Made by a program: the position numbers and the translations under genes. DNA of 44,147 nt from Fimbriimonadales bacterium (lineage in GTDB: Bacteria; Armatimonadota; Fimbriimonadia; Fimbriimonadales; GBS-DC): contig JBKBKS010000002.1 in assembly GCA_046294565.1 (NCBI GenBank), positions 1-44,147 on the forward strand, written 5' to 3'. Position 1 is the first letter of the stretch, and each line of letters opens with the position of its first letter. Shown piece after piece: positions 24,486-37,727 of the stretch. Under the pieces are notes generated by a model. It was not told the origin of the DNA. It did not search any database and was given only the letters and a program-made list of their open reading frames with translations.

Positions 24486-26156
24486 TCAACTGTACGGTGT
24501 TTCGTCGGCGGTTCCTGCTTGAGGCAGGAAGTGTTCCATCCGTTCGCGTCGCGCTTTGTGCTGCTGGTAGAGTTCGCGGAACAGTTCGAACTTGAGGGCG
24601 TGGTAGTCGGCGGTAGCGGGGTTGGGTTCCACGACGAGTTCGGGTGCGGTCATGGCGTGCATGGCGCGTGGGATGTCGGGGTACGCGCCCGCCGCGACGG
24701 CGCCCAGGATCGCGCTGCCCAGCAGCACGGCTTCAGGTTCGCGGTTCACAATCACGCGGCAACCTGTGATGTCGGCGGTCTCGCGTAGCCAGTAGCGGTT
24801 CTTCGCGCTGCCGCCCGTAACATAGATGGCGTCGGTGTGATACCCCGCCTCGCGCATGGCGCGCAGCACATCACGGAGGTTGTAGGCGAGCGCTTGCAGT
24901 GTCGCGTAGTAGAGCCGCGCGAGCGCGTGCAGGCTGGCGTCGAGCGTAAGTCCGTCCACGACGCCGCGCGCGTGGGGGTCGGCATAGGGCGCGCGGTTGC
25001 CGTAATGGTCGGGCAACACATGTAGGCGGCGCGTGAGCAGCGCAGGATAGGGCAACCCCTGCGCCAGCTCGTCCACGATTCGGTTCGCCGCCTCGTAGAT
25101 TGAGACGCCTTCGCGCTCGGCTTTCATCTCCAGCGCGGGGTACTGACGATGATGTTCCAGCGTGTAGTCGATAAGCGCGCCTGCTGCGGACTGACCGCCC
25201 TCGTTCATCCACAGCGTGGGCAGCACCGCGCCGTAGTAGGGACCCCACACGCCCTGCACGAAGCGAGGCTGCTGCGAGAGCGCCATCAGGCACGAGGAAG
25301 TGCCTGCAATCAGCGCGACGGCGCGTTCCAGCGCGTCGAGGCGCGGCTTGCTCTGACCCGCCCACGCAGCGCCCAGCAGCCCAATCGCGCCAGCGTGCGC
25401 GTCCACGATGCCGATAGCGACCTTCGTTTGGGGGGTTAGCCCCAGCTCGCTTGCGGCTTGGGGCGTGAGGTTGCCCGCCGCACTGCCCAACGGCAGTATC
25501 GCCTCGCCGGCGCGCCCACGCTCCAGAATCGACTCGATGCCCAAATCGTGCAGCAGGCGCATATCCCAGCGACGCTCGGCAGGCAGGTAGGTCCACTTAC
25601 AGCCCATCGTGCATTCGCTGCGCAAGTTGTTGCCCGTGCTGCGATAGACCAGGAAATCGGCGAGGTCGAGGAACTTGCTGGCGTTGGTGAAGGTATCGGG
25701 CAGATGGGTACGCAGCCATGCGAGTTTGGGCGGCTCCATTTCCGGCGAGAGCGCGCCGCCCGAATAGCGCAGGGCTTCGTAGCCCCCTGCGTTCGCGCGC
25801 TCCGTCTCGGCAATCGCGCGATGATCCATCCACATAATGATGTTCCACTGGGGGTCGCCTGTGGGGGAGACGGTGATGGGCTGGTCGTTCGCGCCCAACG
25901 CGACCAGCGAGCAGGTGGCGTCGTAGCCGATTCCAATCACAGTTTCGGGAGACACACGCGCCTCGCGCACCACTTGGCGCACTACCTGACACACCGCGCG
26001 CCAGATATCCTCGGACGACTGCTCGGCATATTCGGGCTGCGGACGGTGGATCTGGATGGGTTCCGAAGCCATCGCATGACGCACACCCTGCAGGTCGAAC
26101 AGACCTGCCCGCGCACTGCCTGTGCCGACATCCACGCCGATTACATATCCGTGCAT
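24486..26156 (-). CDS. FGGY-family carbohydrate kinase (pentulose/ribulokinase-like)
   Basis: The start was moved to the ATG at 26156 (GGAGG upstream). 'YVIGVDVGTGSARAGLFD', 'IGYDATCSLV', 'GIVDAHAG', 'IYVTGGSAKNRYWLRETADITG'. The 5' part of the track ORF (to 26699) is antisense to the antiporter gene. Confidence 0.9.
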   Translation of the reverse strand: MHGYVIGVDVGTGSARAGLFDLQGVRHAMASEPIQIHRPQPEYAEQSSEDIWRAVCQVVRQVVREARVSPETVIGIGYDATCSLVALGANDQPITVSPTGDPQWNIIMWMDHRAIAETERANAGGYEALRYSGGALSPEMEPPKLAWLRTHLPDTFTNASKFLDLADFLVYRSTGNNLRSECTMGCKWTYLPAERRWDMRLLHDLGIESILERGRAGEAILPLGSAAGNLTPQAASELGLTPQTKVAIGIVDAHAGAIGLLGAAWAGQSKPRLDALERAVALIAGTSSCLMALSQQPRFVQGVWGPYYGAVLPTLWMNEGGQSAAGALIDYTLEHHRQYPALEMKAEREGVSIYEAANRIVDELAQGLPYPALLTRRLHVLPDHYGNRAPYADPHARGVVDGLTLDASLHALARLYYATLQALAYNLRDVLRAMREAGYHTDAIYVTGGSAKNRYWLRETADITGCRVIVNREPEAVLLGSAILGAVAAGAYPDIPRAMHAMTAPELVVEPNPATADYHALKFELFRELYQQHKARRERMEHFLPQAGTADETPYS

Positions 26157-26222
26157 CGTCGCCTCCGTATCGCCAGCGATTGTACCTCGATTGGCGATAT
26201 TCAGGTACAATTTTGCGCTCTT

Positions 26223-27950
26223 ATGACGCAAACTCATGTTTCCCACTTGGCGGAGAGTATCCTGCTGGTGATTGGCGTCAGCATCGTGATTGTGGCGCTG
26301 TTTGCGCGGTTGCGTCTGCCGTCGATAGTGGGGTTCATTCTCACGGGCGCGGTGATTGGTCCCTATGGGCTGGGCTTGGCGGGCGAGGCGGAGGCGATAA
26401 AGCTGCTGGCGGAGTTGGGCGTCGCGCTGCTGCTGTTCTCGTTGGGGGTGGAGTTCTCTATAGACAAGTTGATTCAGTTGCGCACCTATGTGTTGCGTGC
26501 GGGGGCGGCGCAGGTGGGGTTGACGGCAGTGTTCAGTGCGCTCGGCGCGGGGTTGCTCGGCTTCCGCTTGGAACAGGCGATAGCGCTGGGGATGATTATC
26601 AGCCTCAGCAGCACCGCCGTCGGGGTGAAGTTGCTCAAGCAGCGCAACGCGTTGGACAGCACGCACGGGCGGTTCGCGGTGGGGGTGCTGCTGTTCCAAG
26701 ACATTATGGCGCCGATTTTCATGGCGGTTCTGCCGTTTTTGACGCAGTTGCAGGGGCGCGGGGCGTCACTGGTGGGCGTCAAGCTGCTGATTACGGTTGT
26801 GGGCGTGGCGAGCGTTTACGGCTTGGCGCGGCTGATTGTGCCCACGCTGCTGCGCTGGATGACGGCTTCCGACTCGCGCGAGATCCCCGTGTTAGGCTCC
26901 ATCTTTATCGCGTTGCTGATGAGCTACATCACGCAGTCGCTGGGGCTGTCGCCTGCGTTGGGGGCGTTCGTGGCGGGCGTGATTATCTCCGAGACGCCCT
27001 ACAGCCATCAGATTACCGCTAACATCACTCCTTTCCGCGACAGTTTCCTCGCGCTGTTTTTCATTTCCGTGGGGATGCTGGTGGACTTTCAGGCGTTGCA
27101 GACGGCTTGGTTGTCGACGCTGTTGTGGACGGTCGGGCTGATGGCGTTCAAGTGCGCGTTGGTGCTGGGGGTAGCGTTGGCGATACGGCGTCCGCTGCGG
27201 GTGGGCTTGCTCGCGGGGATGACGCTGGCGAACATCGGCGAGTTCTCGTTCGTGCTGATGGAGCAGGCGCGTGGGACGAACCTGCTGCCGAACGACTTAG
27301 TCAACGGCATCGTGGCGGGCACTTCGCTCAGCATCCTGCTCACGCCGATACTGCTGGCGGGAACCTACCAACTGCTGGCGCGGGCGACCCGACGCGCCCA
27401 CTGGCTCGCCCACACACGCGCGAAACACGAGAGCCATCCCGAGCTGAGCGACCATATCATCATCGTGGGGTTCGGGTTGAACGGGCGCAACTTGGCGAGC
27501 CTGCTGCGCGAATTGAACGAGCCGTTCGTGGTGGTGGAGATGAACGGCGCGCTGGTGCGTGAGGCGCAGAAGCAGGGCATCCCCGTGGTGTACGGCGACG
27601 CGGCGTACCCCGAAATTATGCATGCCGCGGGCATCGAGCGCGCCCGCGCCGTCGTGATTGCTATCTCCGACCCCATCAGCGCACGCTACACGATGCACAC
27701 CATTCGCGCGATAAACCCCGAAGTGTATGTCATCGTGCGCACGCGCTACATGGCGGAGATCGAGCCGCTCTACGCCACCGGCGCCACCGATGTCGTGCCC
27801 GAAGAGTTCGAGACCTTCATCGAAATCGCAGGCAGGATTATGCGCTTGCTCGGCGTGGAGAACGAGCGACGCCTGCACCTCATGAACCAGTGCCGCGCTC
27901 GACACTATCAGGCGTTGCAGGACACCAAAGAGGGCGTGTTCGCCAACTGA
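26223..27950 (+). CDS. CPA2-family cation:proton antiporter with a C-terminal RCK/TrkA-N domain (Kef/YbaL-like)
   Basis: The start was moved to the ATG at 26223. About 12 hydrophobic helices ('PSIVGFILTGAVIGPYGLG', 'LGVALLLFSLGVEFS'), then a Rossmann motif 'HIIIVGFGLNGRNLA' and 'VVYGDAAYPEIM'. Confidence 0.9.
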   Translation: MTQTHVSHLAESILLVIGVSIVIVALFARLRLPSIVGFILTGAVIGPYGLGLAGEAEAIKLLAELGVALLLFSLGVEFSIDKLIQLRTYVLRAGAAQVGLTAVFSALGAGLLGFRLEQAIALGMIISLSSTAVGVKLLKQRNALDSTHGRFAVGVLLFQDIMAPIFMAVLPFLTQLQGRGASLVGVKLLITVVGVASVYGLARLIVPTLLRWMTASDSREIPVLGSIFIALLMSYITQSLGLSPALGAFVAGVIISETPYSHQITANITPFRDSFLALFFISVGMLVDFQALQTAWLSTLLWTVGLMAFKCALVLGVALAIRRPLRVGLLAGMTLANIGEFSFVLMEQARGTNLLPNDLVNGIVAGTSLSILLTPILLAGTYQLLARATRRAHWLAHTRAKHESHPELSDHIIIVGFGLNGRNLASLLRELNEPFVVVEMNGALVREAQKQGIPVVYGDAAYPEIMHAAGIERARAVVIAISDPISARYTMHTIRAINPEVYVIVRTRYMAEIEPLYATGATDVVPEEFETFIEIAGRIMRLLGVENERRLHLMNQCRARHYQALQDTKEGVFAN

Positions 27951-27952
27951 GC

Positions 27953-29389
27953 CTACAGCGCGTGCTGAGTCACACTGTTGCCGTCGCAGGTAATCAGGAC
28001 CTGCTCGTCGTCGATGACGGTCTCGATATGCACAGGTCGCCCCCAGAGCTTCGCTAAGTAGCGCATACAACGGGTGGCGCGCTGCATATCGAGCGGCTTG
28101 CCGTCGTAGTGGTGCTTGAGGTAGAGCTCGCCGCGGTGCTCCCAGTCGCCGTCCTCCACTGTCAAAACAGGCATGCCGAAGTTGGTCATGTTATCGACCA
28201 GCGTGTTGCGCACCTTGCGCCAGTCGGTCTCGTCTACCACCCACACCAGCTCGCCGTTGCGCTCTTCCACGCGGTAGGTGTAGAGGTCTAACTCGCGTAC
28301 GAGCCGCTCGGTGAGGTACTTGTGCAGGAAGGTCTGGTCGCACTCCAACGTGCGCACCTCGAAGAGTTTCTGCATGCCCTGCCCGACGGGGCGCTCGATG
28401 CGGTAGCCCATCCAGTCGGTCTCCTGCTCGTCGGGGTCCACCTCGCCGTTCCAGCGACGCTCGATATCGCGCAACACCTTGTAGCCCACATAGTAGGGGT
28501 TCAGGCTGGTGCGCGAGCCGGGCTGCACCACCGACGAGTGCATCTTGCGGAACTGCACATGCTCGTCTGGGGTCAGCGGCAACGCTTCCAAAATCCGCTC
28601 GTGCCAGAAGGTCGCCCACCCCTCGTTGAGGGTCTTCGTCTTAATCTGCGGTAGGAAGTAGAGCATCTCCTCGCGTATCATGCTGATGATGTCGCGTTGC
28701 CAGTCATCCAGCACGCGCGAGTGGTCGCGTAGGAACAGCAGCAGGTCTTTCTGTGGCTCCTCGGGGATTTTGCGCGGCTTGGGTTCGGGTTTGGGCTTGG
28801 GCTGCGCCATGTAGAACAGGTCTTCATAGGTGTCGCCCAGGGGTTTCGGTTCGTCGGCTTCCGCTTTGCGTGGGGGCGCGCCGTAGGTGGGCAGCACAGG
28901 GTCGATATGCTCCTCAATCGACAGCACCGCGTCCAGAAACTGCTCCACCACCAGCGGTCCGTAGCGCATTTCGTAGTCGCGAATGCGCTCGGCGTGGAGG
29001 CGTGTGCGCTCGATCATCCGACGGTCAGTGTGTTCGAAGTAGATGTTGTTCTTGAAAAAGTCGGAGTGCCCGTACACATGCGCCACGACGAGTTTGTGCG
29101 CGAGCATATCGTTCACATCGAGCAGGAACGCTTGGGAAGGGTTGCTGTTGAACACGAGTTCGTAGATTCGGCTCACCCCATACTCGTACATCGTCTTTTG
29201 CACATGGTAGTCGCGTCCGAAGGTCCAGTGCGAGAAGCGCGCGGGCAAGGCATACGAGCCGAGTTCGTAAATCACATGCGCGGGCGCCACCTCGAAATGC
29301 ACGGGGAACGGGTCTAAGCCCATCGCCAGTGCCTGCTCGTAAATCATCTCGATCCAGCGTTCCAGTTCGGCGCGTTCAGCCTGCGTCAT
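27953..29389 (-). CDS. spoVR: SpoVR/YcgB-family protein
   Basis: 478 aa. 'GLDPFPVHFEV', 'RFSHWTFGRDY', 'RIYELVFNSNPSQAFLL', 'HVYGHSDFFKNN', 'EGWATFWH', 'VEDGDWEHRGELYLKH'. Confidence 0.9.
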   Translation of the reverse strand: MTQAERAELERWIEMIYEQALAMGLDPFPVHFEVAPAHVIYELGSYALPARFSHWTFGRDYHVQKTMYEYGVSRIYELVFNSNPSQAFLLDVNDMLAHKLVVAHVYGHSDFFKNNIYFEHTDRRMIERTRLHAERIRDYEMRYGPLVVEQFLDAVLSIEEHIDPVLPTYGAPPRKAEADEPKPLGDTYEDLFYMAQPKPKPEPKPRKIPEEPQKDLLLFLRDHSRVLDDWQRDIISMIREEMLYFLPQIKTKTLNEGWATFWHERILEALPLTPDEHVQFRKMHSSVVQPGSRTSLNPYYVGYKVLRDIERRWNGEVDPDEQETDWMGYRIERPVGQGMQKLFEVRTLECDQTFLHKYLTERLVRELDLYTYRVEERNGELVWVVDETDWRKVRNTLVDNMTNFGMPVLTVEDGDWEHRGELYLKHHYDGKPLDMQRATRCMRYLAKLWGRPVHIETVIDDEQVLITCDGNSVTQHAL

Positions 29390-29622
29390 AGGTACCCCCT
29401 GCAGTGATTAACGCAAATTATTGTCGGCAGGTTCCTGTATTTTCAGCAATCGTCTCACAGCGACTCTATCTGTCGTCTTTGAGTGCCTCAACAGTCAGGG
29501 CGTCCTATCGGCTTTGCGCTCCCTTCCCGCGTGCGGGGCGGGCTGGGGAGAGGCTGACTTCATTGCTCAGCCCCTTGTAGCATTCTGGGTGTGGAAAGAG
29601 TCGGGGCGAGCGCCTCTTCACC

Positions 29623-29841
29623 TTAGAGGCACTTATGTAGTGTGCCTGAAATCCAGAGCGTACCGTCGTCTGCAAGCACGCGGACACACTCGCGGATCCA
29701 AGCACGATTGAACTCGTGCAGATTCTGAATTTGGTCCCACTCGCCTTTGTTGCAGGCGACAGGTTTACCGCCGCGACAGGTAAGGAAGCCTTGCCCTGAC
29801 AGATTGTAGGGTGGGTCTGCGAAAATGTTGTGCTTACTCAT
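29623..29841 (-). pseudogene. Remnant of a beta-class (CcrM-like) N6-adenine/N4-cytosine DNA methyltransferase
   Basis: 72-aa ORF 'NIFADPPYNL...EWDQ...FNRAWIRECVRVLADDGTLWISGTLH' covers only the motif IV (DPPY) region. Full enzymes are ~270-360 aa, with a further N-terminal segment and a C-terminal FxGxG SAM motif, neither of which appears in any frame downstream. Local GC is visibly lower. The ATG overlaps the galE stop. Confidence 0.7.
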
Positions 29842-30814
29842 AGCCGTTGGGATGGTTTACGAACCACTGATAGGCATGCTCGATCATCGTTGCCAGTTGG
29901 GGGTAGCGGGGTCGCCAGCCGAGTTCGCGTTGGGCTTTCTCGCTGGAGGCGACCAGTCGCGCGGGGTCGCCAGGGCGGCGCGGAGCGTACACCGTTGGGA
30001 TGGACTTGCCCACCACCTGCTCCGCTGTGCGTATCACCTCCAGCACCGAGTAGCCCTGTCCGTTGCCCAAGTTGTAGACATCGCTGGGCGCGCCCGCGCG
30101 CAGACGCTGCAACGCCAAGTAGTGCGCCTCACATAGGTCCCACACATGCACATAGTCGCGAATGCAGGAGCCGTCGGGCGTGTCGTAGTCCGTGCCGAAC
30201 ACCGCTATCGACTCGCGCCTGCCCAGCGCAGTGAACAGCGTGAGCGGTATCAGATGCTCTTCAGGGCGGTGGTCTTCGCCCAGCTCGCCGTCGGGGTCTG
30301 CCCCCGCTGCGTTGAAATAGCGCAACGCGACCGAGCGCACCCCATACGCTTGTCCGTACCAGCGCAACATCCCCTCCATCACGCGCTTCGTCTCGCCGTA
30401 GGTGTTGGTGGGATCCAGCGGGTGCGTTTCGGGGATGGGAACCTCCACAGGCTCGCCGTACACCGCCGCTGTAGACGAGAAGATAATCTGCGACACGCCG
30501 TGCTGGCGCATCGCCTCCATCAGGCGCAGACACCCCAGCACATTATTGTCGTAATACTTAGCAGGGTCGCGCATCGATTCGCCCGCGAAGATGAACGCCG
30601 CGAAGTGGAGAACGCACTCGATATCGTGGGTGCGGAAGACTCGATTCAGCGTTTCAGGGTCGCGCAGGTCGCCCTGCTCAATAACGCCTCCTGTGAGCGC
30701 GCCCTTGTGCCCTGTGGCGAAGTTGTCCAACACCACCACGCGCTCGCCCTTCTGAAGTAGATACTTCACCATGTGCGAGCCGATATAGCCCGCGCCGCCG
30801 ACTATCAGAAGCAT
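29834..30814 (-). CDS. galE: UDP-glucose 4-epimerase
   Basis: 326 aa. 'MLLIVGGAGYIGSH', 'SSTAAVYG', catalytic 'YGETKRVME', 'RYFNAAGA', 'DYDTPDGSCIRDYVHVWDL'. Confidence 0.95.
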   Translation of the reverse strand: MLLIVGGAGYIGSHMVKYLLQKGERVVVLDNFATGHKGALTGGVIEQGDLRDPETLNRVFRTHDIECVLHFAAFIFAGESMRDPAKYYDNNVLGCLRLMEAMRQHGVSQIIFSSTAAVYGEPVEVPIPETHPLDPTNTYGETKRVMEGMLRWYGQAYGVRSVALRYFNAAGADPDGELGEDHRPEEHLIPLTLFTALGRRESIAVFGTDYDTPDGSCIRDYVHVWDLCEAHYLALQRLRAGAPSDVYNLGNGQGYSVLEVIRTAEQVVGKSIPTVYAPRRPGDPARLVASSEKAQRELGWRPRYPQLATMIEHAYQWFVNHPNGYE

Positions 30815-30824
30815 ACACCCAAGT

Positions 30825-33092
30825 CTACCTCATGCGCCTGCGCATGAGAGTTAATCCGCTCATCGACACGACGCCCAAGCCGCTCATAAGTGCGCCGATG
30901 ACGATGCTTCGCGGCAGGAACCACATCTCCACTATCGCCTCGCCTGCAGGCACGGGCACAGCGCGGAACGCGCCGTTCGCACGCAACACCGGAACAGGCT
31001 CGCCGTTCACAGTCGCCCGCCAGCCGGGATACCAAGCGTCGGTAATCAGTAGCCAACAGGTCTGTGAGGTTGGGTTCACCACGCGCAGGCGTATGAAGTT
31101 CGCACGGTAGGCTTGCCATTCGGGGTCGGGCTGGGGAGCAAGCGCACCTTGACCGTATTGCTGCAGGGCGCGCTGCGCGTCCGCGCCACAGACGGGGATT
31201 GCCTCTGGGAAAGGGTTCTGCTGCAGGCGCGACCACACGGCTTCCTCGTTCGGGAGCAGCTCCAGCGGTTGCAGTCGCGCGGGCGCAGGGGGCAGGCTCA
31301 TCCAGCCGTCAGGCGTGAGAACCGCACGCACGCGCAGGTGGGCAAGCGCAGGGTTCAGAGCCTTCACAAAGAGCATGTTGCCGTTCTCAGGCGGCGCGCT
31401 ATCCTGACCGTTCAGCAGGTCTAAAAAGCGTTTGTAGTGGCGCGTGAGCAGCGAGTCGTAGCCGCCGACGTCGTGGAGGCGATAGGCGACGGGCGTGTTG
31501 GGGGGCATTCGGGCAGGCGGCGGCTCGTAGAGGCTCCAGCGCGTGTTCAACACGGCAATCCGCTCGCCTCTGCGCAGCGCAGGCAAGTCGGGCAAGGGCG
31601 GATAGACCGCCTCCAGCGGCGCGCTGCGCGGAAGGCTCGCCCAAATCATCAGGGGCGCCGACGCCAACGCCACAGGCAGCCAATCCGAGCGGAACGCCGA
31701 TGCCCGACTCGCCACGCCGAAGAGAACCGCCGTCACGCCCAGTCCCAAATAGAGTGCGAGGTCGTGCAATACGCCTTCCCAGAGCGCGTTGAGGGGCGCG
31801 CCCTGCGGCAAGGTCAGCCCTGTCAGAAGCGCGGCGAACGCCAACAGCCCCGTCCAGACGGCAAGCGCACGCTTCCAGTCTCCCGACGCCTGACAGCCGT
31901 GCGCCGCCAAGATCGCCGTGCTGAACGCCCACAGGCACAGCACACGAGCAGGCGAGCCAGTCGCGCTGTAGCCCGGCAGGTAGAAGTAGAGCAGTTTCGT
32001 CAGGGGCGTTCCGAGCGCAATCAGCAGCGCGAGTAGCCCCACGCCCAGCCAGAACGCGCCTTGCCCGCGCCGTCGCACGCCCATCAACGCCAGCAGCAGC
32101 CCGAACGCGCCCACCGACACCGCAAGTTCCGCATAATGCACCGCGCCCCAGTAGCCGCCCTCGCGCAACACGCCATATGCGTTCGGGAACCACGCCGTGA
32201 GTAGATGAAACAGCGGCAGCGCGTTGCGCACATAGGCTGCGTACCCCGCCTCTGTCGGAGCCGCCTGCCGATGGCTGTAGCCCGACAGCTCCAGCGTGGG
32301 CAGCAGCTGCACTCCTGCGAGCATCGCGCCGCCGATGTAGCCGACGCCGAGCGCCAGCGCATAGCGCGCCCCCATGCCCTGCGCGCGTGTCTCGTATCCC
32401 CAGTAGAGCGCGTAGAGCAGGCTCATCAGCAGCCCGTAGAGCGCGAACTGCAAGTGCCCCGCCAACAGCATCATCCCGACTGGCGACGCGAACGCCCACG
32501 CGCCCCGAAAACCGCGCTCGCGCACCCGCTCCACCCCCAACAGCAGCCACCCGAACCAGCTCAGCGTCGCAGGCACAGAGCTCAACGGCAGCCACGCGAC
32601 CATAAAGAGGCTCAGCGTCCAAAGCGCCATCCCGACGAGTACCGCCGCGGCGCGTAGCCCGCGCCCGTGCAGCCACAAGCCCAGCCCCAGCCCCGCCCAG
32701 AACAAGTGGAACCACGCCAGCACGCCCACCGCCGCCCAAGAGGGCAACGGCAGCACAAGCAGATGCGGCGGATAGAACGGCGCAGACTGACTGTTGGCTA
32801 ATAGCGGGGTTCCACAGAGCGCATATGGGTTCCACAACGGCAGCTCGCCGCCGAGCCAGAGCGTGCGCACAAGGTCGCGCCAGATGTAAAACTGCGCCGC
32901 GCCGTCCCAAATCAGCACATCCCAACCGGGCGGCTCCACAGCCGTCGGCAGGCTACGCCACGGCTCAAAATGAAACAGCAACCGCAGCGGCGCGAACGCC
33001 CACTCGCCTCTCGCCCATCCACCCAGCAACGGAAACAGCGCAAGAACCGCCGCCGCCAACGCGCAAAAACCCCAACCGGGGAGCCGACGCAT
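30825..33092 (-). CDS. Large polytopic membrane protein, YfhO-like putative glycan/lipid-linked sugar transferase
   Basis: About 755 aa from the ATG at 33092, with many hydrophobic helices followed by a ~250-aa extracytoplasmic C-terminal domain and a terminal TM. The family name rests on architecture only. TATAAT (33105..33100, minus strand) sits 7 nt upstream of the ATG, so the mRNA may be leaderless. Confidence 0.6.
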   Translation of the reverse strand: MRRLPGWGFCALAAAVLALFPLLGGWARGEWAFAPLRLLFHFEPWRSLPTAVEPPGWDVLIWDGAAQFYIWRDLVRTLWLGGELPLWNPYALCGTPLLANSQSAPFYPPHLLVLPLPSWAAVGVLAWFHLFWAGLGLGLWLHGRGLRAAAVLVGMALWTLSLFMVAWLPLSSVPATLSWFGWLLLGVERVRERGFRGAWAFASPVGMMLLAGHLQFALYGLLMSLLYALYWGYETRAQGMGARYALALGVGYIGGAMLAGVQLLPTLELSGYSHRQAAPTEAGYAAYVRNALPLFHLLTAWFPNAYGVLREGGYWGAVHYAELAVSVGAFGLLLALMGVRRRGQGAFWLGVGLLALLIALGTPLTKLLYFYLPGYSATGSPARVLCLWAFSTAILAAHGCQASGDWKRALAVWTGLLAFAALLTGLTLPQGAPLNALWEGVLHDLALYLGLGVTAVLFGVASRASAFRSDWLPVALASAPLMIWASLPRSAPLEAVYPPLPDLPALRRGERIAVLNTRWSLYEPPPARMPPNTPVAYRLHDVGGYDSLLTRHYKRFLDLLNGQDSAPPENGNMLFVKALNPALAHLRVRAVLTPDGWMSLPPAPARLQPLELLPNEEAVWSRLQQNPFPEAIPVCGADAQRALQQYGQGALAPQPDPEWQAYRANFIRLRVVNPTSQTCWLLITDAWYPGWRATVNGEPVPVLRANGAFRAVPVPAGEAIVEMWFLPRSIVIGALMSGLGVVSMSGLTLMRRRMR

Positions 33093-33099
33093 ACACCCC

Positions 33100-33145
33100 A
33101 TTATACCGAGCTGTGGAACTCCGACCGCGCCGAATGGTGTATAAT
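33100..33145. promoter_or_regulatory. Divergent -10 boxes in the 82-bp gap between the YfhO-like gene and the Pup-ligase-family gene
   Basis: TATAAT on the minus strand at 33105..33100 and TATAAT on the plus strand at 33140..33145 (preceded by TG). GGGGGAG (33162..33168) precedes the ATG at 33175. Confidence 0.35.
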
Positions 33146-33174
33146 AAAGATATGAGCCGTAGGGGGAGCCTGAA

Positions 33175-34650
33175 ATGATAGGGCGTCGTGTATTCGGCAT
33201 CGAGACTGAGTTCGGGTGCTTCGTGCGGGACGAGCGCGTGGGTACCTCCGAGACTGTCGTGGAAGCGGTCAAGAACTATGTGTTCAGCAAGGCGCGGCTG
33301 GGACTGATTGACCTGACGGCGCGCGATGAGGCGTTCGAACCCGCGCGCAGCGGCGGCTTCCTTGTCAACGGCGGACGCCTCTATATCGACGCCGTCGGCA
33401 GCCACTTGGAGTACGCCACGCCCGAATGCGCCAGCCTGTTCGATATCGTGGCGCACGAGAAGGCAGGGCAGCGCATCGTCTATAACACGCTCAAACAGAT
33501 GCACTGGGACGAGCGCGTGAGCTTCCACAATAATAATGTCGACCACTTCGCCGGGCACACTTTCGGTTGCCACGAGAACTACTTGGTGCGCACGGACGAC
33601 CGCCTGCCCAGCGATTGGCACAAGCTGGTGCTGCCGTTTCTGACCACGCGCCAAATCTTCGCGGGGGCAGGGCGCGTCGGCGGACATCGCCTCGAACACG
33701 CCGGGTTCCGACCCTCGCTCTCCGAAGTCGCCGACCACCCTATCGATTTCATCTGGGTCTCGAATGTCTATAATGTGGAGCCTGACCCGACTGTGCAGTA
33801 TCAACTTTCGCAACGCGCCGACCACATCGTGCGCGAGAACGCCTCGCGCGTGCGCTTCAACCGCGCGATTATCAATCCGAAGTGGGACAGCGTGTACGGC
33901 TACCAGAACTATCAACGGCTGCACCTGCTGTTCGGCGAGGGCAACATGAGCGAGTACGCCGCCGCGCTGAAAATCGGGACCACCTGCTTGGTGTTAGACC
34001 TTGCCGAAGCGCGCGCCATCCCCAACTGGCTGCGCCTGCAGGACGCCCTACACACCCTCAAGAGCATCTCACGCGACGCCACCCGCAAATGGATTGTCAC
34101 ACTGCTCGATGGCAGCACCATCTCCGCCATCGACCTGCAACGCGCCTACCTGCAACTCGCCCAGAAACGCTTCGCCGGGCGCGACCCCGAAACCGACTGG
34201 GTGCTACACGAGTGGCAGTATGTGCTGGACACCTTAGAGACCGACCCTGAGAAGTTGGAAGACCGCCTCGACTGGTTGATTAAGCTGCGTATCCTGCGCG
34301 AGTATATGGAAGATACGGGCGCACAGTGGGGCGACGAGGCGCTCCACTCCATCGACTTGGAGTATCACAATATCAACCCTGAGCAGGGCCTCTACTACGC
34401 GCTGCAGCAGATGGGCGAGGTGGCGCGCGTCATCGACGATGTGCAGATTGAGGCAGGCGTGACCACGCCGCCCGCCGACACCCGCGCCCACGCGCGCGGC
34501 TATGTCATCAAGAAGCTCGCCGAGCGACGCTACAACCGCTACTACATCGACTGGGACATCGTGTATGTAGACCGCAATCGTCAGGTGGACATGCGCGACC
34601 CGTTCAACACCTACACGCGCGAGGCGGAGCGGTTCGTGATGATGTTGTAG
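33175..34650 (+). CDS. Pup-ligase/deamidase family protein (PafA/Dop homologue, carboxylate-amine ligase fold)
   Basis: 491 aa. 'RRVFGIETEFG', 'NGGRLYIDAVGSHLEYATPEC', 'GCHENYLV', 'LPFLTTRQIFAGAGRVG', 'QLSQRADHI', 'RLHLLFGEGNMSEYAAALKIGTTCLVLDL', 'PPADTRAHARG'. These are the conserved blocks of actinobacterial PafA/Dop. Confidence 0.85.
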   Translation: MIGRRVFGIETEFGCFVRDERVGTSETVVEAVKNYVFSKARLGLIDLTARDEAFEPARSGGFLVNGGRLYIDAVGSHLEYATPECASLFDIVAHEKAGQRIVYNTLKQMHWDERVSFHNNNVDHFAGHTFGCHENYLVRTDDRLPSDWHKLVLPFLTTRQIFAGAGRVGGHRLEHAGFRPSLSEVADHPIDFIWVSNVYNVEPDPTVQYQLSQRADHIVRENASRVRFNRAIINPKWDSVYGYQNYQRLHLLFGEGNMSEYAAALKIGTTCLVLDLAEARAIPNWLRLQDALHTLKSISRDATRKWIVTLLDGSTISAIDLQRAYLQLAQKRFAGRDPETDWVLHEWQYVLDTLETDPEKLEDRLDWLIKLRILREYMEDTGAQWGDEALHSIDLEYHNINPEQGLYYALQQMGEVARVIDDVQIEAGVTTPPADTRAHARGYVIKKLAERRYNRYYIDWDIVYVDRNRQVDMRDPFNTYTREAERFVMML

Positions 34651-34657
34651 CGGGGGT

Positions 34658-36094
34658 TCAGCCGCCGCGCGACCATCGCTCCAGCATCTCCAGTGCGCGG
34701 TCGCGGCTCTTGTCCAGTCGCTCTTGGGGGTGGGGGTAGGTCTTGCGCAGCGTCACGCCTGCCTGCTGCAACACATGCTCGGGGGCTTCCCAAGGCGCGT
34801 GGATATACTCCGTCGGCAGGTTCGCCAGTTCGGGAACCCACTGACGCACATACGCACCGTCGGGGTCGAACTTGCGCCCCTGAATCACTGGGTTGAAGAT
34901 TCTAAAATACGGCGCAGCGTCCGCGCCGCAGCCCGAGGTCCACTGCCAGCCCAAGATGTTGCTGGCGGGGTCGGCGTCGACCAGCGTGTCCCAGAACCAC
35001 GACTCGCCCAGTCGCCAGTGAAGCAAGAGGTTCTTGGTGAGCCACGAGGCGACAATCATGCGCGTGCGATTGTGCATCCAGCCGATGCGCCAGAGCTGAC
35101 GCATGCCTGCATCGACCATCGGGATGCCCGTGCGCCCCTTTGTCCACGCTTTGTAGGCGGGCGTCTCCACTTCCGTCCACGGGAAGGTCTCGAACTCGCG
35201 GCGCAGGGCGCGCTCTTGAGTGTAAGGATGATGATACAAGATGTGATAGCCGAACTCGCGCCAACCGACCTCGCGCAGGAAGTGTTCCACGCCTTTCTTC
35301 CACTTGCCGAGGCTGTGGCGCAAGGTCGCATGCCAAATCTGGCGCGGGGTAATTTCGCCGTGATGTAGGTGGGGCGAGAGGCGCGAGGTAGCGTCCAAGT
35401 CGGGGCGGTCGCGCAGGGTGTGGTAGTCCTCCACAGCGTTGCTCAGGAACCATTCAAGTCGTTTCTGCGCCGCCGCCTCGCCGACTTGCCAAGTCTCACG
35501 GAGCCCCGCCGCCCAGTCGATAGTGGGCAGCAGCTTCAGCGAGTCCAGCGGCTCGGAGTGGGGCATACGCTCAGGCGCGTGCAGCGGTTCGGGTTCGGGC
35601 AGCGGTTCGGGCACTTGCACGACCTGCAACATTCGCTTCCAAAACGGCGTGAATACCCCGTATGGCTGCCCCGCGTCGGTGCGCACGGCGTCGGGGTCGT
35701 GCAGCAGGTAGCTGGGGTACTCGCGTACCTCGACGTCGCGCGCGCGGAGCGTCTTACGAATCTGCTCATCGCGCGTCCAGAGCTGCGGTTCGTAGCGCGT
35801 GTTCCAATAGAGCGCGTCCGCGCCCACTTCGGTCAGGATCTGCTCCAGCACGGGCAGGCTCTGCGGCGCGCGGCGAATCACGAGTTTCAGCCCGCGCCGC
35901 CGCAGCGACTGATCCAGCGATTGCAGCGAGTGGTGCAGCCACCACTTCCGCGCTGCGCCCGGCGCACGGCTACCTTGCTCTTCTGGCGCGTAGATGTAAA
36001 CGGGCACGACCGCGCCCCGACGCGCCGCCTCATACAGCGCAGGATTGTCCGACAAACGCAAATCGTTATGAAACCATACAACCGTCGTTTTCAT
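34658..36094 (-). CDS. phrB: Deoxyribodipyrimidine photolyase (class I CPD photolyase/cryptochrome family)
   Basis: 478 aa. 'VVWFHNDLRLSDNPAL', 'LSPHLHHGEI', 'WREFGYH', 'TGIPMVDAGMRQLWRIGWMHNRTRMIVASWL', 'DADPASNILGWQW'. Confidence 0.95.
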   Translation of the reverse strand: MKTTVVWFHNDLRLSDNPALYEAARRGAVVPVYIYAPEEQGSRAPGAARKWWLHHSLQSLDQSLRRRGLKLVIRRAPQSLPVLEQILTEVGADALYWNTRYEPQLWTRDEQIRKTLRARDVEVREYPSYLLHDPDAVRTDAGQPYGVFTPFWKRMLQVVQVPEPLPEPEPLHAPERMPHSEPLDSLKLLPTIDWAAGLRETWQVGEAAAQKRLEWFLSNAVEDYHTLRDRPDLDATSRLSPHLHHGEITPRQIWHATLRHSLGKWKKGVEHFLREVGWREFGYHILYHHPYTQERALRREFETFPWTEVETPAYKAWTKGRTGIPMVDAGMRQLWRIGWMHNRTRMIVASWLTKNLLLHWRLGESWFWDTLVDADPASNILGWQWTSGCGADAAPYFRIFNPVIQGRKFDPDGAYVRQWVPELANLPTEYIHAPWEAPEHVLQQAGVTLRKTYPHPQERLDKSRDRALEMLERWSRGG

Positions 36095-36133
36095 AGATTC
36101 TCCTCACATAATCTATATGAGATTGTACCCCAG

Positions 36134-36910
36134 TTACTCACTGAGTCGCTTTTGAAGCCTCTGGATGCCCAACGCTTTGCCGGTAGTTCGGTCTAAGTCT
36201 ACCAACACGGCGCAGACGACTGCTGCGCCTTTCGCCACATCGCTTTTGGCGGGCATCCCTGTCAAAAATCGCTGGATGGACGGTTCCAGTTCCATTCCGA
36301 TGGAGGAGTGCAGCGCGCCGCACATGCCTGCGTCGGTGAGGTAGGCAGTGCCTTTGGGGAGGATTCGCTCATCGGCGGTCTGCACATGGGTGTGCGTGCC
36401 GATGACCGCGCTGGCGCGTCCATCCGCGTAGTAGCCGAAGCAGGTCTTCTCGGAGGTCGCCTCCCCGTGAAAGTCCACGAACACGAACGGCGTCGTCAGC
36501 TGAGCGCAGATGTCGTCGAACTTACGGAAGGGGCAGTCGGCGTTGTCCATAAACACGCGCCCCGCCAGCGAGATTACCGCCAACTGCCGATCCAGCACTT
36601 CCAGTATCGTGTAGCCTTTGCCAGGCGACAGAGGCGAATAATTCGCTGGGCGCACAAGGCGTGGGTCGGAGTCCAGCGCGGGGTAGATTTCCTTTTTATC
36701 CCAGATATGGTTGCCGCTGGTGAAGGCGTGGATGCCGAGTTGCGCGAGTTCGTTCAGGGTCTGGGGTGTAATGCCTTTGCCGCCTGAGGCGTTCTCGCAG
36801 TTCGCCAGCACCACATCGGGCGCGTAGCGTGTGCGCCATTCGGGCAGCGTCTTGGCGACGGCGTTGCGCCCTGTGCGCCCCACGATGTCCGCCAGAAACA
36901 GTATCCTCAC
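36134..36910 (-). CDS. ymdB: YmdB-type metallophosphoesterase (TIGR00282 family)
   Basis: 258 aa. 'MRILFLADIVGRTGR', 'NCENASGGKGIT', 'FTSGNHIWDKKE', 'VDFHGEATSEK', 'IGTHTHVQTADERI'. Confidence 0.9.
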   Translation of the reverse strand: MRILFLADIVGRTGRNAVAKTLPEWRTRYAPDVVLANCENASGGKGITPQTLNELAQLGIHAFTSGNHIWDKKEIYPALDSDPRLVRPANYSPLSPGKGYTILEVLDRQLAVISLAGRVFMDNADCPFRKFDDICAQLTTPFVFVDFHGEATSEKTCFGYYADGRASAVIGTHTHVQTADERILPKGTAYLTDAGMCGALHSSIGMELEPSIQRFLTGMPAKSDVAKGAAVVCAVLVDLDRTTGKALGIQRLQKRLSE

Positions 36911-36950
36911 AGTACGAGTGTACCCCGCGTGGCAGGTATACTTTGCAGGA

Positions 36951-37727
36951 ATGGACTGGGTGAAGTTGTGGATGCCTGCTCACCCGATTGCGCAGGGGCT
37001 GGCGGCAGGCGTTTTTATCGTCTCGTTGAACCTGCTCGGCGCGTTGGCGATACTGTTCCTGCGTCATCCTTCCCCACGCGCTCAGGACACGATGCTCGGC
37101 TTCGCCGCGGGGGTGATGCTCGCCGCAAGTTTCACTAGCCTGATTCTGCCTGCCATCGAGCGCGGCGGCGCGCTGCCCGCGCTTGTGGGCGTCGGACTGG
37201 GCGCGCTGGCGATGGACTTGGCAGACCATCTGATTCCGCACCGCCATCCCGTACTGGGGCGCGAGGGGCTGGACAGCAAGCGCGTGCGCGCCGTGTGGCT
37301 ATTTATCATTGCTATCACGCTGCACAACGCGCCCGAAGGCTTAGCGGTTGGCGTGGCGTTCGGCGCGGGGCAGTTTCGCGAGGGCGTGCTGCTGATGCTG
37401 GCGATAGGCTTGCAGAACATTCCTGAAGGGCTGGCGGTTGCGCTCACGGCGGCGTCGGCAGGGTACGGCAAGCGGTTCTACGCCGTGTTTGTGGCGGCGC
37501 GCTCCGGGCTGGTGGAGCTGCCCGCCGCCGCGCTAGGCGCCGCGCTGGTATACGCACTCGCGCCGATTGTGCCCTACGCGATGGGCTTCGCCGCAGGCGC
37601 AATGCTCTACATCATCAGCGACGAAATCGTGCCCGAAACCCACCGCAAAGGACACGAACGCTGGGCGACCTTGGGACTCATCTTCGGACTGATGGTGATG
37701 CTCTACTTAGATGTGGCGTTAGGCTAA
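36951..37727 (+). CDS. zupT: ZIP-family divalent metal transporter
   Basis: The start was moved to the ATG at 36951, because the track's 5' extension is antisense to ymdB. 'LGFAAGVMLAASFTSLILP', 'ITLHNAPEGLAVGVAFG', 'GLQNIPEGLAVA'. It converges on galT with overlapping stop codons. Confidence 0.85.
   Translation: MDWVKLWMPAHPIAQGLAAGVFIVSLNLLGALAILFLRHPSPRAQDTMLGFAAGVMLAASFTSLILPAIERGGALPALVGVGLGALAMDLADHLIPHRHPVLGREGLDSKRVRAVWLFIIAITLHNAPEGLAVGVAFGAGQFREGVLLMLAIGLQNIPEGLAVALTAASAGYGKRFYAVFVAARSGLVELPAAALGAALVYALAPIVPYAMGFAAGAMLYIISDEIVPETHRKGHERWATLGLIFGLMVMLYLDVALG

Follow-up and report, generated by a model that had tools for sequence, protein, structure and literature searches.

A PafA-type ligase gene probably relocated from its UBact-proteasome operon in Fimbriimonadales

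Results

A PafA-like gene without partner genes in a 44-kb contig

The stretch of DNA analysed here, referred to as the window, is 44,147 nucleotides long and derives from a Fimbriimonadales (Armatimonadota) MAG, of which this single 44-kb contig is the portion examined. Positions 33175..34650 on the forward strand, stop codon included, encode a PafA-like (UBact/Pup-type) carboxylate-amine ligase of 491 amino acids. The protein matches the Pfam profile Pup_ligase (PF03136) over positions 1-440 of 441 with 421.6 bits (E 5e-126, cut-off 25), in agreement with the preliminary description, which had assigned the gene to the PafA/Dop family on the basis of its conserved blocks. The AF2 model of the ligase (pLDDT 89.7, pTM 0.92) shows the PafA/Dop fold, with Foldseek TM scores of 0.78-0.82 to 4BJR, 7OYH and 4B0R. 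The neighbours are the ones described before, a divergently oriented gene for a YfhO-like membrane protein (30825..~33090, reverse strand) and a convergent photolyase gene (34658..36094, reverse strand).

GC content is uniform. Moreover, a second MAG (L015) has the same gene order and is syntenic over window positions 24492-36653 at ~92-95% nucleotide identity, which shows that the ligase locus is not an assembly chimera. The ligase of the syntenic MAG CALGZO01 is 99% identical. Homology to relatives stops abruptly at the borders of the ligase gene, at positions 33128 and 34652, and its flanks vary even between close relatives. We rejected the idea that the gene lies on a mobile cassette, as direct and inverted repeats flanking it do not exceed chance. 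Two other candidate traces of a rearrangement were also discarded: a ZIP transporter gene adjoins the operon in L063/L064 only, and this adjacency is therefore taken as coincidence, and a methyltransferase fragment at 29623-29841 shares only 33% identity with the operon-side methyltransferases. PADLOC finds no match to a defence system for the ligase and its neighbours, and Rfam and tRNA scans across the window return nothing.

Searches for partner genes were likewise negative. In tblastn searches of the window, nothing besides the ligase is recovered with the Mpa, Dop-like, UBact, 20S beta and 20S alpha sequences of five related operons as queries. A UBact HMM run on all six frames of the window has a best E-value of 0.19, compared to 1.6e-34 for the positive control, and no small ORF in the window ends in G-Q or G-E. 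The 44-kb contig thus contains no UBact or Pup, no proteasome, no Mpa-type ATPase and no second Pup_ligase paralogue. Within the window, the gene is the orphan it had been said to be, and the reported lack of small ORFs with a Pup/UBact-like end is borne out.

The catalytic set is complete and the discriminating residues are mostly of the PafA type

The GIETEFG motif (residues 8-14, 33196..33216, forward strand) is invariant in the ligase alignment and provides E10 and E12, the counterparts of the Mg-binding Glu8 and Glu10 of Dop. The catalytic strand NGGRLYIDAVGSHLEYATPE (residues 65-84, 33367..33426, forward strand) carries R68, Y70, the catalytic D72, S76, E79 and A81. E10, E12, R68, Y70, D72, E79, H133, R214, R248 and H250 are all kept, and E8, E10, Y92, D94, E99, H155, H241, R90 and R205 of AcDop, whose Mg-binding and catalytic roles have been described (PMC8599861), correspond to E10, E12, Y70, D72, E79, H133, H250, R68 and R214 of the ligase. 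R227 of AcDop, which is equivalent to the phosphate-binding R207 of CgPafA (PMC8599861, PMC10465538), is replaced by K236; a lysine is found here in 49 of the 51 PafA-like proteins sampled, which are mostly from Armatimonadota. K236 lies in the region comprising the alpha-loop and the diverged nucleotide/phosphate loop (residues 217-243, 33823..33903, forward strand), which also contains H217 and has IINPKWDSVYGY in place of IINTRDEPHAD. The alpha-loop sequence departs from those of PafA and Dop, and DSSP assigns residues 211-230 of the ligand-free AF2 model to coil and a short strand, without a helix at the alpha-loop.

Positions that discriminate PafA from Dop have been defined by Hecht et al., 2020 (PMC7947786); the PafA type has G/S behind the catalytic Asp, EYAT, a His where the alpha-loop starts and Asp in xDW. 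In the ligase S76, A81, H217 and D459 are PafA-type and only P83 is Dop-type. D459 (codon 34549..34551, forward strand) is the Asp of the xDW motif, a position that holds Asp in PafA and Ser in Dop (PMC7947786) and N, T, G or S in the Dop-like paralogues discussed below. VGS inserted behind the catalytic Asp, together with the equivalents of A81, H217 and D459, has been shown experimentally to turn Dop into a ligase (PMC7947786), and the ligase has D-AVGS-H in place of the D-H-A-H motif of Dop. In addition, the Dop loop is absent, the ETEF-to-NGGRLY spacing being 51 residues as opposed to 79-82 in Dop-like paralogues; the short PafA-like segment noted earlier is thus confirmed. Among the equivalog models, the ligase scores 302.6 bits with the PafA model TIGR03686, below the cut-off of 551.3, where in-operon orthologues reach 301-320 bits, and 287.9 bits in two fragments with the Dop model TIGR03688, below the cut-off of 492.3.

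Actinobacterial PafA (TIGR03686; 4B0T, 4BJR) has the same fold as the ligase (TM 0.78) and also lacks the Dop loop. The two agree in residue type behind the catalytic Asp, where the alpha-loop begins and in xDW, and all Mg, ATP and catalytic residues are present. PafA differs in sharing only ~30% identity, in lacking a 39-residue insertion before the alpha-loop, and in having TRDEPHAD, Arg207 and GDANM where the ligase has PKWDSVYG, Lys and GEGNM. With Dop (TIGR03688; 4B0R, 7OXV) the ligase shares the superfamily, the fold (TM 0.81), the catalytic Asp and the Mg ligands, but not the Dop loop of ~30-40 residues, the D-H-A-H motif, the Phe/Tyr with which the alpha-loop begins or T217.

The insertion GHRLEHAGFRPSLSEVADHPIDFIWVSNVYNVEPDPTVQ (residues 170-208, 33682..33798, forward strand) lies directly before the strand with R214 and the alpha-loop. 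It had been suspected from the sequence, at the risk of being an alignment artefact. Alignment to CgPafA (165->178 versus 169->207 in the ligase) and AcDop (190->200 versus 169->209), in both of which it is missing, excludes this and shows that it is real and 39 residues long. In the AF2 model this arm extends strands 167-174 and 200-210 and contains helices at 182-193, with a pLDDT of 63-73. The segment measures 37-39 residues in 50 of the 51 PafA-like proteins, including in-operon ones, and the insertion is therefore not special to the orphan ligase. It is 9-12 residues long in Dop-like proteins and shorter, with 17 residues, in a homologue from Latescibacterota.

Orthologues are the last gene of UBact-proteasome operons

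Orthologues with 55-89% identity form the final gene of an operon with the order Dop-like, UBact (PF20513), 20S beta, 20S alpha and PafA-like, which is found in Chthonomonas calidirosea, HR15, HR16 and many MAGs. In these operons many UBact genes end in Glu. The ligase of the UBact cluster is orthologous to that of the window, the Chthonomonas calidirosea protein being 59% identical, and the two are alike in length, in the 39-residue insertion, in the Lys-for-Arg replacement and in the catalytic set; the site table shows catalytic and discriminator sites identical to those of in-operon orthologues. Unlike the UBact-cluster ligase, however, the ligase of the window is encoded outside the cluster.

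The detached arrangement is limited to a recent sub-clade with ~88% identity or more, which comprises about 20 species-level genomes, all with intact 491-codon genes. One of these, the complete sister genome AP024673.1, encodes a 95% identical ligase at 602-624 kb. At 1,814-1,835 kb, ~1.2 Mb away, it carries genes for a Dop-like protein (509 aa), UBact (NF033388, 88 bits), beta and alpha; the ligase is missing and has left no remnant after alpha. The same clade yielded two more operons without a ligase (L065 and L066-69), so that every Dop-like operon recovered from the detached clade lacks exactly the ligase. The paralogue at the start of the operon scores 456-473 bits with TIGR03688 (cut-off 492) and has both the Dop loop and the D-H-A-H motif. 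This true Dop-like paralogue opens the operon, whereas the ligase of the window is an orthologue of its last gene. Since it is clearly Dop-like, the window-type protein is the only ligase candidate. The preliminary description had considered that a canonical cluster with a closer pair of PafA and Dop might exist elsewhere. The cluster does exist in the sister genome, but of the pair it holds only the Dop-like paralogue, and the ligase is thus the sole candidate rather than a spare copy.

Phylogenetic trees, which had been proposed as a check, were inferred by neighbour joining (NJ) with bootstrap. The ligase nests within the clade of last-gene PafA-like proteins from UBact-proteasome operons (200/200). 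All detached genes cluster together (213/300), their sister being the in-operon group L027/28/30/31 (union 300/300), and the Dop-like tree mirrors that of the ligase. Grouping with actinobacterial PafA over Dop is recovered in 92/200 replicates, in an NJ analysis of 356 columns that included one PafA and one Dop as references. Within the detached clade dN/dS is 0.03-0.07, compared to 0.013-0.026 for in-operon genes. The detached ligase is under strong purifying selection.

The detached gene has a conserved upstream module

The -10 box and Shine-Dalgarno (SD) sequence previously proposed for the gene were both recovered. The TATAAT hexamer lies within GGTGTATAAT at exactly 33140..33145 (forward strand); it is invariant in the detached-gene clade and missing from the alpha-to-ligase junction of in-operon relatives. 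The SD sequence AGGGGGAG (33161..33168, forward strand) is located 6 nt upstream of the ATG at 33175, within the conserved block ATGAGCCGTAGGGGGAGCC. This TATAAT/SD module is kept in every detached copy compared and missing in in-operon relatives.

Comparison of the upstream regions of 20 orphan loci revealed a GGAAC box as well (33115..33119, forward strand), 20 nt upstream of the -10 hexamer and kept by most of the detached-gene clade. The window contains a single GGAAC-N18-22-TATAAT, where 0.03 would be expected. The box may be functional, and its distance from the -10 hexamer exceeds that of a standard sigma-70 -35 element. A consensus scan finds no full sigma-70 promoter here, because a match to the -35 element is lacking.

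Discussion

UBact gene clusters belong to Gram-negative phyla; Lehmann et al. (BBRC, 2017) reportedly described UBact in Nitrospirae, Verrucomicrobia, Armatimonadetes, Nitrospinae and Planctomycetes. The UBact family is covered by Pfam PF20513 and NCBIfam NF033388, and the PafA-homologous ligase of the cluster carries the NCBI name 'proteasome accessory factor PafA2 family protein'. A literature search on UBact returned review mentions only and did not find an experimental study of its conjugation; the biochemistry outlined here is therefore extrapolated from Pup.

We consider it highly probable that the gene product is the PafA-type ligase of the UBact-proteasome system of Armatimonadota, and that the gene has been relocated from the operon and is expressed from its own promoter. 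The operon with UBact, the Dop-like gene and the 20S genes, shown for the sister species, would then be found elsewhere in the genome from which the window comes. Judged by its homology to PafA, the ligase would bind the disordered UBact tag (about 62 aa, C-terminus ...YRQRSG-E/Q), which is its presumed tag in place of the Pup (...GGE/Q) of actinobacterial PafA. With ATP/Mg it would phosphorylate the C-terminal Glu of UBact on its side-chain carboxylate and then move UBact onto a lysine in the target protein. If a UBact gene codes for a terminal Gln, its product would be deamidated by the Dop-like paralogue beforehand, and this paralogue might also be able to take the tag off again. The 20S proteasome encoded beside UBact would be the destination of the tagged proteins. 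Ligase activity, UBact as the substrate and the route of delivery to the proteasome are all predicted on these grounds.

The preliminary description had offered two interpretations, a stand-alone enzyme with a different substrate or tag, and one component of a pupylation-like system that is dispersed and lies outside Actinobacteria. The latter has held up, as AP024673.1 has an orphan ligase at ~0.61 Mb and an operon without ligase at ~1.82 Mb, besides the two other ligase-less operons. A stand-alone enzyme would imply that the UBact, Dop and proteasome genes were lost in the window's lineage and that the ligase now acts on something else, ligating for example another C-terminal Glu peptide or serving as a small-molecule carboxylate-amine ligase. 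Some actinobacteria do retain pupylation genes without a proteasome (PMC3511204), and the lack of partner genes within 44 kb, the variable flanks, the gene's own promoter and a dN/dS slightly above that of in-operon genes would all fit. We nevertheless think this improbable: the protein nests in all replicates among the operon PafA-like proteins, its catalytic and discriminator sites are unchanged relative to in-operon orthologues, selection on it is strong, the complete sister genome has both loci, and the operons of the clade lack exactly this gene. The same low expectation applies to a more specific version, in which the operon was lost in the window's species and the constrained, independently transcribed ligase conjugates a different C-terminal-Glu peptide, or modifies targets without degradation, with a specificity conferred by the clade-specific arm at 170-208 beside the alpha-loop.

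It is also unlikely that the protein is a second hydrolase, resembling a deamidase or depupylase, instead of a ligase. Foldseek ranks Dop marginally over PafA (TM 0.81 versus 0.78), although fold similarity does not discriminate between them, the Dop HMM scores near the PafA HMM (288 versus 303), P83 is of the Dop type, the model shows no helix at the alpha-loop, and NJ places the protein with PafA over Dop in only 92/200 replicates. However, the Dop loop is absent, the VGS insertion, A81, H217 and D459 are the very residues that convert Dop into a ligase (PMC7947786), the operon already has a near-canonical Dop, and the many UBact genes that end in Glu require a ligase but no deamidase. Finally, the MAG origin of the contig and the loss of homology exactly at the gene borders could point to mis-assembly, mis-binning or a pseudogene decaying after a rearrangement. 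This explanation is effectively refuted by the same arrangement over 12 kb in the independent MAG L015, by the intact detached genes of about 20 species-level genomes and by their low dN/dS, as well as by the uniform GC content and the lack of flanking repeats.

The apparent orphan is thus best read as the trans-encoded ligase of a known system, and it does not therefore merit being reported as a new modification pathway; the value of this result is mainly that of a correction. The ligase belongs, as an ordinary member, to a system that is known but biochemically uncharacterised and whose genes are dispersed. Such a layout is normal for the canonical pupylation system: in actinobacteria pafA is often split from prcBA by unrelated ORFs, and mpa has an operon of its own (PMC3511204). 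The separation of the ligase gene from the UBact operon appears recent and datable, in-operon genes being 89% identical and detached ones ~88% or more. A dedicated, conserved promoter would let tagging be regulated apart from deamidation and degradation. Moreover, the biochemistry of UBact conjugation must reckon with three features common to nearly all PafA-like proteins in the sample: the 39-residue arm by the alpha-loop, a Lys that replaces the phosphate-binding Arg, and the loss of TRDEPHAD.

An Mpa/ARC-type AAA ATPase gene adjoins the operon in Chthonomonas- and HR16-type loci, and no Mpa-type ATPase was seen beside the operon at any Fimbriimonadales locus examined. The Mpa proteins are 55-73% identical across lineages.

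A PafA-like gene without partner genes in the window

The PafA-like open reading frame (ORF) at 33175..34650 (+) encodes a protein of 491 aa that matches Pfam Pup_ligase (PF03136) over its entire length with 421.6 bits. In the NCBIfam equivalog models it scores below the cut-off both for PafA (302.6 bits, cut-off 551.3) and for Dop (287.9 bits in two pieces, cut-off 492.3). The window is a complete NCBI contig of 44,147 bp, and when the proteins of five related operons (Mpa, Dop-like, UBact, beta and alpha) were searched against it, only the ligase gene itself matched. A UBact HMM of 27 sequences found no UBact in any frame of the window (best E-value 0.19, versus 1.6e-34 for the positive control), and no small ORF in it ends in G-Q or G-E. 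Thus, the preliminary description was right to call the gene an orphan within the window. Gene context also agrees with the neighbours it named, a YfhO-like membrane protein gene that diverges from the ligase gene and a photolyase gene that converges on it. Beyond these lie GalE, SpoVR, YmdB, a ZIP transporter, GalT and an HDOD protein; the remaining genes are housekeeping genes (AlaRS, chemotaxis genes, acyl-CoA dehydrogenases and similar). The nearest genomes are Fimbriimonadales (Armatimonadota) MAGs, mainly from hot-spring-type samples. In one of them, L015, the ligase shows 99% amino acid identity and the region is syntenic with window positions 24492-36653, so that another, independent assembly confirms the order YfhO/ligase/photolyase.

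The mechanically predicted YfhO-like ORF (30825-33272, -), read from the other strand, reaches beyond the start codon of the ligase. Its first ~62 residues are nothing more than a reverse-strand reading of the conserved ligase 5' region, where they match the related loci L009 and L010; the true start of the YfhO-like ORF is probably a Met near residue 61 (~33092), giving a divergent intergenic region of ~85 nt. The Pfam YfhO match is confined to the C-terminal ~75 residues (35 bits). Moreover, ~390 nt between SpoVR and GalE (29437-29825) are missing in L015. Inside this segment, an ORF (29623-29841, -) encodes 72 aa that include the ADPPY motif of N6/N4 DNA methyltransferases; this fragment appears to be left over from a truncated gene and is just 33% identical to the operon-adjacent methyltransferase in the related locus L012.

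Discriminating residues point to a ligase

The differences between PafA and Dop have been defined and tested by experiment (Hecht et al., 2020, PMC7947786), and their active-site residues have been listed (Cui et al., 2021, PMC8599861). The window protein has the full catalytic set (E10, E12, R68, Y70, D72, E79, H133, R214, R248 and H250). As had been noted from the sequence, it is PafA-like in lacking the long Dop loop: the ETEF-to-NGxRLY spacing is 51, versus 79-82 in the Dop-like paralogues. The catalytic Asp is followed by the PafA-type D-AVGS-H, whereas Dop has D-HA-H; A81, H217 and D459 are further PafA-type residues, and P83 is the only Dop-type position among the discriminators. The first gene of the operon is Dop-like (TIGR03688, 456-473 bits), with the Dop loop and the D-H-A-H motif, and many UBact genes already encode a terminal Glu. 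The fold comparison of the window-ligase model (TM 0.81 to Dop, 0.78 to PafA) does not separate the two activities, and the neighbour-joining (NJ) tree gives only 92/200 on whether the clade is closer to actinobacterial PafA or to Dop. Our assignment of the protein as a putative ligase therefore rests on the discriminator residues, on the fact that the system already includes a bona fide Dop, and on the many Glu-ending UBact genes.

The gene belongs to the last-gene clade of UBact operons

In 2017, Lehmann et al. reportedly described gene clusters of Armatimonadetes and further Gram-negative phyla in which UBact is combined with homologues of PafA, Dop, Mpa and the proteasome. PafA/Dop homologues in Armatimonadetes were also noted by Hecht et al. 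(PMC7947786), UBact has family models in Pfam (PF20513) and NCBIfam (NF033388), and NCBI already names the ligase-type proteins 'PafA2 family'. The cluster order is (Mpa-like AAA ATPase) / Pup_ligase of ~505 aa / UBact / beta / alpha / Pup_ligase of ~490 aa, with a UBact (PF20513) of 61-64 aa in the canonical clusters. The orthologue of the window ligase is the final cluster gene in Chthonomonas calidirosea, in a further genome of 4.86 Mb and in MAGs with 72-80% identical orthologues.

We mapped all system components across 48 genome loci, which showed a sharp boundary. The orthologues with 88-89% identity in L027, L028, L030 (HR15) and L031 are in-operon. All those with at least 90% identity, together with L029 at 88%, are detached, with no other component within 10 kb; they represent ~20 species-level genomes. 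In the NJ tree the window ligase lies inside the last-gene clade (bootstrap 200/200). The detached genes group together (213/300) as sister to the in-operon group of L027, L028, L030 and L031 (union 300/300), and the simplest history is one recent relocation. Given this nesting and the retained catalytic and PafA-type residues, the earlier suggestion of a stand-alone enzyme or a new tag finds no support.

Complete UBact operons with Armatimonadota-type PafA-like proteins (55-57% identity) also occur in MAGs labelled Chloroflexota or Candidatus Bipolaricaulota (L051, L054/L056), which would mean that this operon type is more widely distributed or has been transferred horizontally, unless the MAGs contain binning errors.

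Ligase-less operons in the same clade

As a probe for the remaining operon we took the Dop-like protein from the nearest relative with an in-operon ligase. It matched a Dop-like protein of 509 aa on the 2,987,958-bp chromosome of the complete genome AP024673.1 ('Fimbriimonadales bacterium KatS3mg018'). The operon locus (1,813,674-1,835,203; L064) reads ZIP(-) / Dop-like / UBact / beta / alpha, its UBact matches NF033388 with 88 bits, and no second Pup_ligase or remnant was found there. The detached ligase of this genome, 95% identical to that of the window, lies at 602,216-623,688, ~1.2 Mb away, which bears out the idea of a dispersed system outside Actinobacteria. Ligase-less operons of the same Dop-like sub-clade occur in L065, with RuvX after alpha, and in L066-69, with Uma2 after alpha; the flanks differ between all three types. 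Because such operons exist in the clade and the trees of the Dop-like proteins and of the ligases mirror each other, the UBact system is dispersed, not lost, in the detached clade, and we infer the same for the window's own genome. That the operon was lost in the window's own species and the ligase repurposed is very improbable. Pairwise dN/dS of the ligase genes is 0.03-0.07 in the detached clade, versus 0.013-0.026 for in-operon genes at similar divergence. In actinobacteria, too, pafA often lies apart from prcBA, with unrelated ORFs in between, and mpa belongs to another operon (PMC3511204); a trans-encoded ligase is thus a variation in degree, not in kind.

In KatS3mg018, the place after alpha where a ligase would be expected is taken by an N6_N4 DNA methyltransferase, possibly a pseudogene, whose sequence is divided between two ORFs (225 and 129 aa; L064 13401-14464); a CCA-adding enzyme follows. 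The ZIP gene of this locus (L064 9166-9945, -) lies immediately upstream of the operon and divergent from it; the window ZIP gene (36831-37727, +), 2.2 kb from the ligase, is 78.6% identical to it in amino acids (77.5% in nucleotides). Since ZIP genes are absent next to all other operon loci, this is probably a coincidence, though it could be a footprint of rearrangement. No Mpa-type ATPase adjoins any of the Fimbriimonadales operons. In L066 (2668-5959), L067 and L068, the Dop-like gene is immediately preceded, at a distance of 42 nt and in the same orientation, by genes for a 388-aa protein without Pfam match and a 711-aa DUF87 protein (HerA-like ATPase); the two may form a NurA/HerA-like pair. 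Finally, the UBact C-terminus alternates between ...RQRSGQ (L064, L012, L035, L056 and L061) and ...RQRSGE (L065, L027-31, Chthonomonas and the HR16 group) in close relatives, mirroring the PupQ/PupE polymorphism of actinobacteria; examples of the genes are L064 11527-11715, L065 11530-11718 and L012 2614-2802.

An insertion and a diverged loop shared with in-operon orthologues

The extra segment between AGAGRVG and QLSQRADH, previously put at ~30 residues, is a real insertion of 39 residues (170-208) relative to the solved PafA and Dop structures. It is well conserved (HP[IV]D[FY][IV]WVS...VEPDPTV), measures 37-39 residues in 50 of the 51 PafA-like sequences sampled and 17 in a Latescibacterota homologue, and is absent from the Dop-like paralogues. 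In the AlphaFold2 model (pLDDT 89.7 overall, 63-73 in the insertion) it is predicted to prolong the strands on either side of it, with two short helices as a cap. It directly precedes the strand with R214 and the alpha-loop. In PafA, this loop controls whether the enzyme acts as ligase or hydrolase, and also its contact with the target (PMC7947786, PMC10465538); the insertion may plausibly take part in recognising UBact or the target. Moreover, the near-universal IINTRDEPHAD...GDANMSE is replaced in the window-ligase clade by IINPKWDSVYGY...GEGNMSE, with Lys for the phosphate-binding, substrate-contacting Arg (AcDop R227 = CgPafA R207). Insertion, loop replacement and Arg-to-Lys exchange are all common to the in-operon orthologues, and therefore none is linked to the orphan status.

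Putative promoter and breakpoints of the detached gene

The -10 box and Shine-Dalgarno (SD) sequence proposed for the gene stand up as parts of a conserved 5' module, with a perfect TATAAT at 33140-33145 and AGGGGGAG at 33161-33168. All detached copies share this module, (GGAAC-N20-)GGTGTATAAT-N9-11-ATGAGCCGTAGGGGGAGCC-N4-5-ATG, which is unique within the window; beyond its 5' end the copies differ, with at least four unrelated contexts, and the alpha/ligase junction of in-operon relatives has no relation to the module. Because a generic sigma-70 scan at the ligase found no -35 match and called no promoter, the putative promoter is assigned from conservation and the perfect -10 hexamer.

Compared with its 88%-nt relatives, the window is homologous in nucleotide sequence only from 33128 to 34652. 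No repeats flank 33128-34652, and the flanks of the truncated, ligase-less operons are equally variable; for these reasons the operon split looks like a by-product of the generally low synteny in the clade and not like the transfer of the ligase as a cassette. Several relatives in the detached clade have a squalene/phytoene synthase gene in convergent orientation whose 3' end overlaps the final ~40 nt of the ligase gene (synthase tail ...ITTNRSASRM; L009 1946-2209, L010 2075-2386 and L011 1466-1810). In the window, a spurious ORF (34611-34841, -) keeps just the antisense tail ...IITNRSASRV, directly followed by the photolyase gene, which places the downstream breakpoint essentially at the stop codon of the ligase.
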